Of a stretch of 64,000 nt of DNA, positions 8,826 through 60,200 are shown one piece after another (position 1 is the stretch's first letter; the number at the start of each line of letters is the position of its first letter). A model generated the notes under the pieces. That model worked only from the letters and a program-made list of their open reading frames with translations. It did not search any database and was not told the DNA's origin. The stretch comes from Octopus vulgaris (Eukaryota). The stretch covers positions 77,686,001 to 77,750,000 of the forward strand of contig OX597822.1 in the NCBI GenBank assembly GCA_951406725.2, written 5' to 3'. A program made the translations under genes and the position numbers.

Positions 8826-9480
8826 TAATCTAAAATATACTCTCCTTCATTTTCCCCAATGCTCTTCCATCTCACTGGTATACTTACAAGGCTCCTCTTC
8901 CAAAATTCACTTGTCAATGATAAAATTGCTCTTTCAGTACTGTTCTGACCTCATCTACAGAATTCATATTTTCCATTCAAATGATTTTGAATACTGCAGA
9001 ATGAATGATAATCTGATGGGGCAATGTCCAGCGAATATGATGGGTGGGGCATTGTTTCCCATTCAAACTGCTCCAGCCTTTGGAATGTCATCCTCGTTGT
9101 ATGTGACCAAATATTATCCTGATGGAAGGGCACCTTTTGTCTTGAAACCAAAGATGGTCGTTTTTCTTCTAGCGCTCACTTAAGCCGCTTGCAGTAGATC
9201 TCATTTGGTTTGCGTTTAAAAGTTCAAAGTGGACTAAACCTTTCATATCCCACCAAACAGATAGCAACGCTTTACATGGGTAAAGACCTTTTTTAGCCTG
9301 GGGTACCGGTGTTTCTCCTTTCACTACCCACTGTCTTTGGCGCTTGACACTTTTATAGAGAAACCAATTCTTGTCACTATTCAGTCCAAAAAAAAGTTTG
9401 TTCATGAAACGTGACAACAAAGTAGAGCACACATTCACTCTCTGTGCACAATTAGGCTTGGAAAGTTTATGAGGAACTCA
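8826..9480 (-). pseudogene. Decayed mariner (DD34D) transposase, catalytic half
   Basis: Minus-strand motifs (W)VPHKLS, LSVWWDMKGLVHFELL, HPSYSLDIAPSDYHSF and C-terminal RWKSIGENEGEYILD*, with frameshifts and stops. Confidence 0.92.
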
Positions 9481-21620: not shown

Positions 21621-22009
21621 TAATCTATTCCAATTACAGTGCTGGATAGGTTTCTTTTCTTTTTATGAGATCCATCATCGATTATGCCTGTCCTGCCCAA
21701 GCTCCCAGTATTTCTACAACAAATCACAACGAACTACAAAGAACCCAAAATAGAGTACTTTGCGTCATCATATACCACTTAAAAAACGAGCCCAAAATAC
21801 ACATGAAAGATCATTGAGATATGTGAGGGATATATATTTTCTGGTTGTAGTGATCACCAGCCTTCATAGACCTACCACTTACAAGAATGATTCCCCACAT
21901 ACATATACATACACACACAGATTCATACATCATTGAACAGCACTGTGCCATCTTAAGAATACAATATCTTTCCTTCATCCCATGTGTGTATGTATGTGTA
22001 TATATATAT

Positions 22010-22041
<32 letters not shown>

Positions 22042-22042
22042 T

Positions 22043-22510
22043 TAGAGTGGTTGTATACTGTCAACTTAACGTGACAGTAGGGGATTACACCACCGCTGTT
22101 TAGCCCTAGGAAGCATCGAAGCTTCCTGTCGGCTTCGACACATTTTCTGTGTCCTTATATATTTACGAAGGGGAGACAAATACCCCCAACAGCTAGGCCT
22201 GCATCTAGAGACACGCATGTTTCAGGGTCTTTGCCCATCATCGGTCTAGAGTAGCAGAAGCCTGCTAGCTGAAGATATCTGTCTCGACTTCGTAAACATA
22301 TATATCTAATTTTCAGTGAAGTTTATTCACTGATCACCAAAATCAGAAATATTAAATTTCTAAATATCTCATAGAGATATGTACGGTGGTGGGGCGATAG
22401 AGTGGTTGAATACTGTCAACTTAACGTGACAGTAGGGGATTACACCACCGCTGTTTAGCCCTAGGAAGCATCGACGCTTCCTGTCAGCTTCGACACATTT
22501 CCTGTGTCCT

Positions 22511-22517
<7 letters not shown>
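22043..22517 (-). mobile_element. Retrozyme-like element: 355-nt monomer plus ~120-nt terminal redundancy
   Basis: Direct repeat 22043-22162 / 22398-22517 (period 355), an internal hammerhead, many hairpins and (TA)n flanks. Confidence 0.75.
22204..22250 (-). ncRNA. Type I hammerhead ribozyme motif (core CCGAUGA, one mismatch to CUGAUGA)
   Basis: Minus strand reads TCTAGA CCGATGA t GGG caaaga CCC t GAAAC AT gc GT GTC TCTAGA. Stems I, II and III all pair. The GUC cleavage site falls between 22210 and 22209. Confidence 0.8.
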
Positions 22518-22549
<32 letters not shown>

Positions 22550-37590: not shown

Positions 37591-38918
37591 CTTGTGAGTG
37601 AATTTGATAGACAGAAACTGTATCAAAGCCCATTGTGTGTGTGTGTGTGTGCGTGTGTTTGTTTATCACCTGCCTCACCCTTTGGCAGCCAGTTTTAGGT
37701 TTATTTACATTCCTATAAATTAGTGGTTTGGCAAGAGAGACTGATAGAATAAGTACCAGACTTCAAAAATAAGTAACATGGTGGTGGCCCAGCATGGTCG
37801 TAGTCCAGTGGCTGAAAACAAGTAAAAGACAGAAGATGGTTAGCATCAAAAATGGAACATTTACCAGTTATCATCAAAGCATTAGGTTCAAAGCATAGGT
37901 AATGGTGTGGCTGTGTGTTAAGAAGTTTACTTCCTAACCACATGGTTCTGGGTTCAGTTCTATTGCATGGCACCTTGGGAAAGTGGTTTCTACTATAGCC
38001 TCAGGCCGGCCAAAGCCTTGTGAGTGGATTTGGTAGAAGGAAACTGAAAAAAGCCTATTGTATATATGTATATATATATATATTTATTTATGTGTGTGTG
38101 TCTTTGAGTCTGTATTTGCCCCACCACCACCACCAGTAAATTAAGTCCACTTTTCTTCTTCAGTTTTCTATTTCTTCAACTAGAAATATGAAAGGATACT
38201 GAAATCAGCATAATTTGGCTGATGTTGGATTAAACTTCTAATCTGGAGAATTGCTTTTACTGATATCTTTGTAGAAAGTAGTATTGGAAATATTTGAGCA
38301 ACCTTTATATTTCTAGATGTAAAAACTGAATATAAATATTTATGAGTTGTGTCATTATCTTGAAGTGTATGAAAGAGAGTGAGAAGAGACAAAGTGAGAA
38401 GGTAAATGATGTTAGAAAGTGCTCTCTCACTGTGTTACTAAAAGCTATCTCATAGTAAATTAAAATCAGTTTTTTTTTATTAGATTATCTAGTTGAAATC
38501 TTCAAAACCACATTTTGATAAAAAAAAAAATATATTAAAATTAGAATTTTTAACAATTTTCTTGACAGTGTAGTCTTTTTTTTAGTAAAAGTTACATACT
38601 TACAATCAGCAGCTTTATTTGTAGCATAGATTATTATAATTTGCTTTATTGACACAATGTCAGAATCATTAGCATGCTGGGCAAAATGCTTTTAGCAGCA
38701 TTTCGCCCATCTTCATGTTCTGAGTTCAAATGCTGCCGAGGTCATATTTGACTTTCATTCCTTCAGAGTCAATAAAACAAATACAAGTTGAATACTGTGT
38801 TGATGTAACTGACTCCCCACCCCCTCCTTTAAAATTGCTGGCCCTGTGCCAAAATTTGAAACCAATATTTAATGAGACGCAATACTTATTTTTCTCTTTG
38901 GATTGCTATATTTCCCAG

Positions 38919-39153
38919 ATGCACCAAAAGACAGCTTCCATCCGTAAAAGCCACCTTCGCAGCAGCAACCTTCACCATTATGCCGCCATACTGTACACTG
39001 CAACCCAATGTACCTCAAATCTTGTGGGAATTTTACAACCTTTCAGCAGTTGTGGATTAAGAAGTCTGATGGTGGATGTTGTTTGTGGACACGGTCTAAT
39101 ATGGTTGAAAGTCATAGCAAGGAAAGCACAAGCGCTTCATTTGATTTGGGCCG
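38919..39153 (+). CDS. C7orf25: Coding exon of a UPF0415 / C7orf25-like (DUF1308 family) gene
   Basis: Acceptor tttcccag| and donor g|gtgagt bound 235 bp of open frame: MHQKTASIRKSHLRSSNLHHYAAIL...LMVDVVCGHGLIWLKVIARKAQALHLIWAG. From memory this aligns with vertebrate C7orf25 IKESHLQSTNL...[30 protein letters not shown]. Flanking exons were not found. Confidence 0.85.
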
Positions 39154-39819
39154 GTGAGTCAGCCATTGCTATTTTGTATTCTTGTTTTCTTCTTCTTTTT
39201 TTTTTTTTTACTTATTTCAGTCATTTGACTGTGGCCATGCTGGAGCACCGCCTTTTTTAGTCGAGCAAATCGACCCCAGGACTTATTCTTTGTAAGTCTA
39301 GTACTTATTCTATCGTCTCTTTTGCCGAACCGCTAAGTTACAGGGACGTAAACACACCAGCATCGGCTGTCATGTGATGTTGGGGGGACAAACACAGACA
39401 GATACACACACATATATATACATATATACGATGAGCTTCTTTCAGTTTCCGTCTACCAAATCCACTCACAAGGCTTTGGTTGGCCCGAGGCTATAGTAGA
39501 AGACACTTGCCCAAGGTACCACACAGTGGAACTGAACCCAGAACCATGTGGTTTGTAAGCAAGCTACTTACCACACAGCCACTCCTACGCCTATTTGTTT
39601 ATTTTTTTATTTATTTTTGGTTTTATTGTTTACTTTTCCTTTCTCTCCAAGTTTTTGATTTCTTCTTTTTTTTTTACCTTCGTATTTTGATTACAAATCC
39701 TGCTGAGATTAACTTTAATTATGTCTTTCTGAGAACACCTGAAATAGATTAAGTTGTGAGTGTTCCACATCCAAACTGTGTACCATTGTGGAAAAATTAG
39801 TAGTAGTAATAATAATAAC

Positions 39820-57276: not shown

Positions 57277-60200
57277 CTGCCCGATGCCCAGAACCTCTCT
57301 GAGAATGTTGTCACTCTTGTCCTCCACTAATCCTCTAAACAACTCCAAGATGGAACTTCCTCCAACTGCATTGCCCAACTGGCCAAGGGCTGTGAGGGCT
57401 TGGAGACACTGCCTCTGTTTATGCCTGATCCAGGGCTGTAGCTCTATCAAGGAGATGAGCTGCAGAAAAGCACATCCAACAAACAGTAACCAAACCTGCT
57501 CACCATTAAGGTATCGCTGGATGTCGCAACTTTCGATGGACTAACTTCCTAAGTCGATCTCTGAAAGCTTGATGTGCAAGAAGGACACTTTCAGCTTTCA
57601 GTATCCAGGACCCTGCCTATGAAGCCTATCTGAGTCAACTGTACAGATCACAAATTTGTGGTCTGTATAGCTGATGAGTTTGAATTGTAGACAACCTATC
57701 TTTCCCTATCTGTTGGCCTACAAAATACCCTATTGAGATAAGATCTGGCTGACCCAATGCTGTTTGCTCTTGTCTACACTGGGGCGTCCAGGTAATCCAG
57801 TCTGAAATGATTGAGCTGGTTCGTGAGGCTTGTGCACCCCACTTTTCTATCCTCTAGCCCCCACCCAATCCACATGTGCATCCAAGATGATATTCCAGTC
57901 CCCCACTAACACTAAAGAGTGAGATATCCCTTGAAAGACCTCCAAGCATCTGAAGAAATCCAGTCGCCCAGATCCAGTTGGAGCATATACAGCAACCATT
58001 TAAAAGCACTACCTTCATTATCCAGGACCACCAACTTACTTTCTGGGTCCAGGAAGACTTACTGTATCTCGAGATCCAGGCTTGACTCAGAGATGCAAAG
58101 ATCTCAAAATCATCAAAAATGGGCCCTGAGGTGCATGTACCCATGACCCTGGTCTCACTGATGGCTATTACATCCAATTTCAGCAATCTGAGATCATTGA
58201 GCAAGCGACTTTGCTTCCAGGATGACCTTAGGCTTCGTACATTTATGTGACTTACTCTTAGCACCACTATATTGGCTTAAAAGGAAGGAAAGAAAGATGA
58301 GGATGCTACTTACCTTCCATTTCTTCATTGGGCTCCTTTGTAAAAGATGTCCCCCACCTATTTTCAATGTCTTCCCTTCATTATAAAATGGCCATCAGTT
58401 CTTTGTTGGCCCACCTTACTAACATGAAGTTAGCAACCCACATTGTTGTTCTTGTTGCACTTGTAGTGTGAGTTTCCTTTGGGGATTTTTTTCCTGTCAG
58501 CAGTGGGTTTTTGGTGTTTTTGGTGCTGCAGGAATTGTCTGAGTATCTGCATTTGTTTTGGGTGAATCTGTAGTTTCTTTATTATCTTGTTTTGGTGCAG
58601 GACAAGATGTCTCACCTCTGTGACTTCCTTTTGGATTTTTGGATTTACTCTGTTCTTCCTCCTCATCATCACTTTTCAATGTGGTAGAACCAGTGTCTCT
58701 TGCAACCTCCTTCTCTCTGTGTGGAAGTGAATTTGTTTTTGTATGTGTATCTTTTTCTGCATGTTTGTTTGAGAGAGATGGTGTTGAGCTTGGTTGCAAA
58801 GTGATGGTTTACGTAGTTGACCTCTCCAATGGTTTTCCTGCTGGTGCTGTTATTACCACGACCACTACTGTTACTATTTTTGCTGCTTTCCCTGTTGTTG
58901 GTGATGATCTTTCTACAGCAGGTGCTGTCTTTTGTTTTCCCAGTCTTGGTGTTGGTGTCAATGGAGGTCTATGGACCCCTGTACTTATTCGCTGAGGGCA
59001 GAATGCTTGTAGGTGTGTTGCTTCACCATAAGCAAAGTAATGAGGCCTTCTGCCCTCGGTGATCAAGGATAATTTCATCCCATCCTTGACGTGGACATGA
59101 TTTAGGATGTTCTCCAAGTCGTGTGGTCTTATTCGGATTAGCATTTCCAAATCCATCCCAGCCCAGTCTTGTCTTTGTGTCCGCTGGACTTTTAGGAGGA
59201 GGGTGTCACTGCCCTCCATGATCACACATCCATTGAGCCACCATATGTTGACACCTACTGTTATTCTGAGGATTCAAACTTCTGTTGTAGGATGGGTACA
59301 TTATGAGCTGGTCAGTTTTACAGGATCCCACTGAATGCTTCATGGCCAGCTCTTCTGTTCTAAAAAGTACCGAGATGGTTCCAAAACTTCAGGCCCTTTG
59401 AATGAATTCAACATGCTCTCTGATCCATCTCAGTGCCAGCTCCACTTTAAGGTGAGAGGGTTGTTCTGCTCTCCGAGACTGCACCGAGATGCACCTATAC
59501 TTTACTGTCCTACTCACAATTTCTGCCTCCATTTCGACTGGGATTGCAAGGCTAGCCCAGCTTTTTCTCTTTTCATGTGTTTGTGGTCCTGGCCTAACAT
59601 CTTTTTTGTTGAAGATATCTATCTCATAATACTTTTGCTGGCGTTTCATAGGTACTGCTGTAAAAGTACTTGTTCCGCTCTCACTGGTGATGGTGGTGGT
59701 GTAATTGTTCACATTGTTACTTCCAAATACACCCACCTCTCTGTTGCTGGTGTTGACATTAGTACTGGTTGTGTTCTCATCAATGTTTTTGTTGTCATTA
59801 TTCGTTCGGTTATTATTTTCTGTTAGGCTTCTCTGCTCCATGTTGTTGAAGTTGTTATTTTATGTGTTGATATCAGTTATCATGGTATTTTCCACATTAT
59901 TTCTGTTTGTGGAGTTGGTAGTTACATTTTTGTTGTCTATACGACTATCGAGTGATTGTGTGTTCTCCGTTGTGTCTCTTTTCTCTATCGTATTACTTCT
60001 TTGTTCTTTGCAGATAATTTTATCACTGTCCATAGGGTCTGTGGTGCTTTTAGATTCATTATCAATTTTGTACTCGAAATTGTTATTTGTGTCAGTGAAA
60101 ATTACATTTCCATGACTTTTCCTGCAGTCACAAATTGGTTTGTTTTGCATTAGAAAGTTACACCCCTCCATGACATTTTTTGATTGCAAACGTAAACATT

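Follow-up and report, generated by a model that had tools for sequence, protein, structure and literature searches.

A 478-nt insertion on the minus strand of the window (the whole 64,000-nt stretch of Octopus vulgaris DNA analysed here) is probably a 5'-truncated copy of a high-copy, non-coding retrozyme with a 355-nt unit, likely inserted by a Penelope-like element (PLE) from an RNA that was probably circular. The return of animal retrozymes to DNA has been a hypothesis based on their co-occurrence with PLEs and on terminal-repeat homology. In this family, the anatomy of the insertions itself carries the PLE signature and predicts two start positions on the RNA, one for each DNA end, so that a 355-nt RNA would suffice to test the retrozyme cycle directly, and with it how inverted and tailed PLE insertions originate. 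Judged from sequence, three features appear to be new: a branch in which a U4C core change is fixed, retrozyme ends confined to two exclusively paired sites, and a LINE with a retrozyme as its target.

The insertion in the window

The insertion occupies positions 22043..22520 (minus strand) as a single arm of 1.35 units. Unit positions (q) are counted on the hammerhead strand, from q1 at 22397 to q355 at 22043. The full monomer (22043..22397) is preceded upstream by a partial lap (q233-355; 22398..22520, minus strand) that differs from the full lap at 5/123 nt, one of these five differences falling in a column that is polymorphic in the family. The direct redundancy with a period of 355 described in the original prediction is present as a 123-nt repeat (22043-22165 versus 22398-22520, spacing 355) with 96% identity. 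The 3' end of the insertion lies at 22043, within the family end called site A below, and the 5' end is truncated within the unit's own TATATA, merging with the (TA)n of the target so that the last few bases are ambiguous. The (TA)n reported on either side of the element is found in both flanks, with a target microsatellite (TA)n(CA)n(TA)n on the left (22000..22042) and (TA)n(TG)n on the right (22521..22549); a target duplication of this copy would be masked by the (TA)n of the flanks. As had been noted, the element is free of ORFs (zero overlapping frames among those of at least 110 aa). The motif TATATAA (22155..22161, minus strand) may represent a TATA box, and across the family it is a frequent 5' joining point to (TA)n. 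The window copy contains one hammerhead only and is therefore unable to excise a monomer by itself; it is one dead-end, 5'-truncated retrozyme insertion. No further family member was found within the 64,000 nt. Elsewhere in the window, a frame matching DUF5614 (PF18474) at 38724-39257 (plus strand) is probably a host-gene exon, and positions 68-2097 hold a 373-bp tandem repeat (5.5 copies, 99% identity) that is unstructured (z +1.3) and lacks the hammerhead pattern.

The hammerhead and its predicted fold

A type I hammerhead lies on the minus strand at 22204..22250 (read 22250-22204), as originally described, with a 6-bp stem I (UCUAGA/UCUAGA, 22250-22245 with 22209-22204) and a GUC whose C17 is at 22210, the predicted cut being 3' of C17. 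The core reads CCGAUGA, with C3 at 22244 and the variant C4 (U4 to C) at 22243. Stem II has 3 bp, closed at its base by a U.U pair and followed by GAAAC, and stem III has 3 bp with a 4-nt loop. The description of a single core change was therefore correct for U4C and omitted the U.U pair under stem II. A loose hammerhead pattern, searched on both strands, has one match in the window versus 0.13 expected by chance and was matched in 12/100 shuffles, and an Rfam search reported no hammerhead at E<=1, only microsatellite-driven miRNA noise. The motif alone is thus weak, and the hammerhead in the window is accepted as real because the family data support it.

The predicted minus-strand fold has an energy of -147.1 kcal/mol (z -13.3, with 0/100 shuffles as stable), compared with -130.4 kcal/mol (z -7.5) for the plus strand and -138.5 kcal/mol (z -11.1, 60 shuffles) for the circular form, and 69% of the unit is predicted to be paired. 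The long rod capped by the hammerhead (22156..22302, minus strand) and every hairpin named beforehand recur in the predicted minus-strand fold. The pairing of caccaccg with cggtggtg, which had been taken as evidence for a circle because it would span the monomer junction, is a local helix around the hairpin at 22056-22079 that can form without a circle. The lowest-energy prediction does not contain the active hammerhead, whose stem III has a probability of about 0 in the circle fold and whose fold lies 4.5 kcal/mol above the predicted minimum.

Variation among copies is informative about which strand is folded. Polymorphic paired columns of the rod mostly toggle between A-U and G.U on the hammerhead strand, which marks the minus strand as the structured RNA. 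Within the C4 branch, one stem II pair is G-C in 71 cases and A-U in 52, a compensatory change. Among 11 hand-picked relatives, 92.6% of 121 hammerhead-stem cells pair and 8/11 stem pairs change on both sides (0/500 shuffles), although the relatedness of these sequences inflates the contrast. Stems kept by compensatory change indicate that the hammerhead fold is constrained. On the hammerhead strand, A>G changes also exceed U>C changes (142/12354 versus 95/12115; after collapsing, 125/9554 versus 86/9440, p=0.01). A-to-I editing could also produce this modest excess but is not claimed here, given that the signal comes from a small number of columns and would equally be expected from selection for G.U pairs.

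Family size and the state of the hammerhead core

A genome-wide search had been expected to reveal a multicopy unit, and it did so, with thousands of copies, partly tandem. The search of the 2.8-Gb genome gave 3430 first-look candidates, of which 40 were scored, and the best 30 loci are 92-100% identical to the unit; a 23-nt piece of the core has 255 exact genomic matches, and retrozymes make up ~0.1% of the genome. The consensus CUGAUGA that had been anticipated was not recovered, since the branch reads CCGAUGA. Genome-wide, the exact core pattern is found 647 times with C4 and 31 times with U4, and with this family state U4C gives no indication of damage specific to the window copy, which had been suspected of being catalytically dead. 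Among mapped laps, C4 is found in 117/129 and U4 in 10/129, a rate the same as at other CpG cytosines. In two places with closely spaced cores on opposite strands, one core has C and the other U, a split that fits later CpG decay.

Collinear sister subfamilies have the canonical U4 (200 matches; U4 in 97 of the 100 listed), and C4 probably arose as a derived state within the retrozyme family. A more distant sister family with a period of 360 (family 2; 2887 candidates) has a U3-A8 core and aligns with the unit at a score of 210 against a shuffle maximum of 111; in the match list, it ends at its positions 301 and 360. Members of family 2 (L176:4937-5490, plus strand; also L092, L020/L177 and L208-L227) display a minimal stem III, the same tail hairpins and a two-end pattern. 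The U4C branch, with hundreds of copies, beside canonical and U3-A8 sisters offers a natural comparison through which the importance of cleavage could be judged. The identical core substitution is known from a viroid hammerhead; according to the available part of the source, it strongly reduces activity in vitro, yet the viroid variant remains infectious (cited in Perreault et al. 2011, PMC3088659). Here, in contrast to the viroid variant, U4C has become fixed in an entire branch, with 647 or more copies in the genome.

Insertion ends and target sites

From 120 mapped loci, with five duplicates dropped, 124 insertions from 115 loci were obtained, one odd insertion being excluded from the end count. 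The outer 3' ends fall at one of two sites in 150/170 cases, namely site A (q344-3) or site B (q49-61), and a set unselected for full-length match gave 106/121. The two sites are 56 nt apart, and each follows a hairpin. In the window copy, site A (family 3' end no. 1) is an AC-rich single-stranded stretch at 22043..22054 (minus strand), 3' of the hairpin at 22056-22079, with a second copy at about 22398-22409 (minus strand); it is unpaired in the predicted fold and presumably serves as a start of reverse transcription. Site B (family 3' end no. 2), at about 22342 (minus strand), is internal in this copy, and the 56-nt tail between A and B (22342..22397, minus strand) contains two hairpins. The expectation of freely permuted copies was thus wrong: only the 5' ends vary, and the 3' ends are fixed at two sites.

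The combinations of ends are restricted as well. Inverted insertions, in which two arms are joined 5'-to-5' (n=47), comprise 33 with A/B ends and 14 with one known and one other end, with no A/A and no B/B, and the 76 single arms end at A in 36 cases, at B in 34 and elsewhere in six. Three further sets (tail-picked loci, a choice that favours B; an older subfamily; and canonical sisters) yielded A/B ends in 13/16, 9/12 and 2/5 inverted insertions, again with no A/A or B/B. This exclusive pairing suggests that each DNA end started at its own site on a shared RNA. Non-simple target duplications of at least 7 nt flank 33/124 insertions (control 6.9%), 17 of them being 11-13 nt long, and (TA)5 is found near an end in 45/124 insertions versus 149/1997 control positions.

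Together, the fixed A/B ends, 5' truncation, 11-13-bp duplications and (TA)n targets constitute the two-start "tail" signature of PLEs, and the variability of the 5' ends speaks against an LTR mechanism. The original suggestion of PLE-type copying is accordingly supported, with truncation, the inverted 5' arm, the tail (of 56 nt), duplications and AT-rich targets all present. In the accessible descriptions of PLE insertions, truncation, partial tandems, an inverted 5' copy and a tail at one end are reported (PMC8557442, PMC3846280). In the available part of an in-vitro study, a PLE protein cleaves the two strands of AT-rich DNA and elongates each of them, and it begins copying at a pair of internal RNA positions that delimit the tail, close to an AC-rich stem loop (PMC11167929). 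Endonuclease-bearing PLE insertions as described in these sources (PMC3846280, PMC8557442, PMC11167929) share with the retrozyme 5' truncation, 5'-to-5' inverted arms, a tail that may be present at one of the ends, two internal starts beside an AC-rich stretch, 8-14-bp duplications and AT-rich or (TA)n targets. In contrast to PLE insertions, the retrozyme has no coding frame and its unit closes on itself, and its tail measures 56 nt versus 30-40 nt in the PLEs covered by these descriptions.

The template and a proposed cycle

Several observations bear on the form of the RNA that was copied. Only 3/170 5' ends lie within 5 nt of the cut site (0/41 at tail-picked loci), and this lack of a pile-up indicates a template that was continuous there. 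Arms longer than 370 nt account for 46/175, the longest having three units, and two complete hammerheads occur in only 4/175. Laps of one arm differ at 85/485 polymorphic positions (17.5%) versus 2001/4850 (41%) in controls, inverted arms differ at 122/851 (14%) versus 3770/8510 (44%), and 20 rare variants are shared in 43 lap pairs versus 33 in 860 control pairs. Since laps within one insertion share variants, the earlier proposal that more than one lap was copied from one template is favoured. These comparisons favour a single circular RNA that was read for more than one lap and from sites A and B alike, with the reservation that homogeneous linear multimers would give similar likeness of laps and arms; given the retrozyme reading, a circular template is rather likely. 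None of the public runs listed is recorded as RNA; contigs of four runs (two guessed to be RNA, and contigs being unable to display circles) have a 3'-heavy unit depth, like probable DNA runs, and no joint in them reveals a circle.

The proposed cycle would begin with minus-strand (hammerhead-strand) transcription of a locus that has two hammerheads. Cleavage at both would free a monomer that is then ligated; in view of U4C and the U.U pair, this cleavage is probably slow or protein-assisted. A PLE protein, which probably acts as a dimer, would nick AT-rich DNA on each strand, with 11-13 nt between the nicks, and the reverse transcriptase-endonuclease of a PLE likely pasted the copies in. The two DNA ends would prime within one RNA, one at site A and the other at site B, and each cDNA would extend upstream through the sealed cut site, sometimes for more than one lap. 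The two cDNAs would then be joined 5'-to-5' (inverted A/B), or one would survive as a single A or B arm, as in the window copy. Within this cycle, the cleavage, the circle and the choice of PLE are inferred.

Alternative explanations

An unlikely, though substantial, alternative is that the same PLE machinery copies a linear multimer that stays uncleaved and derives from a few tandem source loci; the C4 hammerhead would then be weak or vestigial and a circle would not be required. Uncleaved RNA explains equally well why 5' ends are lacking at the cut site, two- and three-unit loci exist, and a damaging core change has swept the branch. In the available text of the in-vitro study, moreover, unprocessed RNA is the main substrate of the PLE protein, and hammerhead cleavage is dispensable for insertion (PMC11167929). 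The three-unit arm of locus L006 also fits a multimer: adjacent laps there have 35/355 differences and two subfamilies are mixed, which is not obtainable from one circle, and either an in-register template switch or a mixed source array would account for it. At this locus, the inverted arm is of the same subfamily as the 3'-most lap, whereas both inner laps come from a different one. Against a linear multimer, copying that truncates can only shorten units, yet 46/175 arms exceed one unit; sources with at least two hammerheads are rare (4/175), and none has more than three units; and compensatory changes in the stems have been kept inside the C4 branch.

The circular retrozyme must also be weighed against two readings in which the copies belong to another kind of element. 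That they are merely 5'-truncated terminal-repeat stubs of an autonomous PLE would explain why every insertion mark is PLE-type, and hammerheads are typical of PLE terminal repeats in the available account (PMC4209133). Upstream, however, the copies enter their own unit head-to-tail rather than a coding frame, and what lies downstream of site B is the unit itself and not a 5' UTR. No linked ORF other than those of inserted LINEs was found upstream of the copies, and the upstream DNA common to the 76 single-arm insertions consists of LINEs (10 loci) and one repeat (two loci). PLE protein fragments occur in seven searched loci, of which four were extended and none has a terminal repeat-ORF arrangement. 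Because the copies run upstream into their own unit and the shared flanks are not PLE frames, the stub reading is largely refuted and very improbable. An endogenised viroid-like replicon, meaning an infectious RNA circle captured by the enzyme of a host PLE, is hardly credible. Its appeal lies in the viroid-like size and pairing (69% paired), the many G.U-preserving polymorphisms and the viroid precedent for U4C (PMC3088659, as far as that source is available). It is opposed by a hammerhead on one strand only, versus both polarities in Avsunviroidae-like agents, by thousands of genomic copies where no DNA phase is expected, and by the coexistence within a single genome of several collinear subfamilies that have diverged to different degrees, which points to long residence; the core pattern was also unmatched in metagenome contigs, a weak argument.

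Relation to known retrozymes

The assignment to the animal non-LTR retrozymes is supported in that the family is multicopy, structured, hammerhead-bearing, non-coding and partly tandem; the predicted CUGAUGA consensus and free permutation were not borne out. The family combines a type I hammerhead and a 150-450-bp unit (period 355-366) in tandem or partial-tandem copies with a non-coding sequence and dispersed, multicopy insertions bearing target duplications longer than 4 bp. With the animal non-LTR retrozymes described in the available parts of Cervera and de la Pena 2020 (PMC7229834) and Li, Clavereau, Pollet 2026 (bioRxiv 10.64898/2026.07.22.740005), it shares a non-coding 355-365-nt unit, a type I hammerhead, tandem or partial-tandem copies, duplications >4 bp, a stable fold and co-occurring PLEs. 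Retrozymes are reported there from coral, mussel (350-390 bp) and axolotl (PMC7229834). The U.U pair at the base of stem II is also found in the axolotl HHR_Amex2, and an axolotl retrozyme with this pair is reported to cleave to 22% as a monomer (PMC7229834, available portion). In Xenopus, 8/9 retrozyme dimers remained uncleaved in vitro, and a PLE origin of retrozymes has already been argued (bioRxiv 10.64898/2026.07.22.740005, as far as its text is available).

Differences from the known animal retrozymes, to the extent that the two sources could be compared, include the family-wide U4C core, the prevalence of dispersed copies of 0.2-1.5 units rather than long arrays, the sequestration of the hammerhead in the predicted circle and the targeting by a LINE. 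The two fixed 3' ends and the exclusive A/B pairing are not described in the available parts of PMC7229834 and bioRxiv 10.64898/2026.07.22.740005. A literature search, which covered papers rather than the repeat databases Repbase and Dfam or the papers' supplements, returned no description of the 355-nt family, and the available part of PMC7229834 makes no mention of cephalopod retrozymes.

Candidate PLE partners

The genome contains 6136 candidate elements combining RT and GIY-YIG, of which 150 were scored, with their domains confirmed by Pfam. A very young family (L141-L150), the most active PLE here, has intact 781-aa RT+GIY-YIG frames with 95-99.5% identity and two 3' ends about 38 nt apart (a tail). 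It sits in (TA)n and bears a hammerhead-like motif whose core is U3-A8, as in family 2. Its linker motif, CX4CX2C, is what we take to be Neptune/Nematis-like, and it has a long terminal repeat with internal repeats. In a second PLE family (L152, L153), the core of the terminal hammerhead is CCGAAGA (U4C) with U.U under stem II, and the tail is ~30 nt. Among 40 PLE loci, none shares sequence with the unit or the tail, the only match there being to a sister retrozyme, and the 24-30 loci with the tail pattern all led to retrozyme bodies and to no partner PLE. At one locus, a piece made up of retrozyme and LINE has inserted into the decayed fragment of a PLE, with a near-identical 230-bp duplication on either side (L228:7393-7622 and 9104-9333).

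A LINE that targets the retrozyme

Among the single-arm copies, 10/76 start at q121-129 directly after common DNA ending in AATAAA. This DNA belongs to a LINE and a 1.6-kb relative, both of which sit about 65 nt upstream of the predicted cut site in the same orientation as the retrozyme. The target site corresponds to 22260..22280 (minus strand) of the window copy, where it is empty; in other copies it is duplicated, with target duplications of 14-17 bp in six loci. Inserts lying between both halves of a retrozyme measure 5449, 1647, 1661, 1658, 3455 (two tandem copies) and 1617 bp. Broken frames in the long insert encode a zinc knuckle, an AP endonuclease, an RT and zf-RVT (Pfam, assembled from pieces of two broken copies), and the short insert contains an ORF1-like frame with no Pfam match. 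The LINE is placed as L1/Tx1-like by its architecture, and a homologue search returned only unnamed LINE proteins.

The preference for this target is consistent across the genome. All 6/6 genomic matches to the 3' end of the long element (three seeds, three new) run into q121-122. For the short element, 30 of 61 matches to the 3' end were examined (seven of them seeds), and 20/30 lie at a retrozyme-type target, followed in 18 cases by the 355-nt family or close sisters, in one by family 2 and in one by another hammerhead-bearing relative; of the other ten, four continue into a target stub and another LINE copy and six into unrelated DNA. Hitch-hiking of one ancestral LINE insertion was considered and rejected, because the 5' junctions differ and the hosts span several subfamilies, which indicates that the insertions were independent.

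In the available part of Kojima 2015 (PMC4494074), LINEs of the Tx1 clade target U2, microsatellites, and DNA or LTR transposons, with Tx1L found in Tx1D, Keno in U2, Kibi/Koshi in microsatellites and Tx1-Mar in Mariner. The LINE described here shares with that clade the zinc knuckle of ORF1, the AP endonuclease-RT-zinc domain of ORF2, a fixed site in a multicopy target and a shorter relative with the same target. It differs from the clade as covered there in that the target is a ribozyme-bearing retrozyme, entered just upstream of the hammerhead in several subfamilies. A literature search yielded no report of a LINE targeting a retrozyme, and a LINE aimed at one would represent a new target class for site-specific retrotransposons. 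A combined scheme with three tiers of parasites, in which a circular RNA with a U4C ribozyme is copied simultaneously from both sites by a dimeric PLE enzyme and a dedicated LINE uses the retrozyme as a safe harbour, and possibly as a promoter and RNA-processing signal, is offered tentatively, as somewhat less likely than not.

At four loci (L275, L276, L270, L283), short and long LINE copies are stacked at one retrozyme target with a duplicated target stub between them. Downstream of a short LINE 3' end in L273 lies a more distant tandem hammerhead-bearing unit with a period of about 335. The window itself contains, at 57842-58058, an old fragment with 68% similarity to the retrozyme-targeting LINE.
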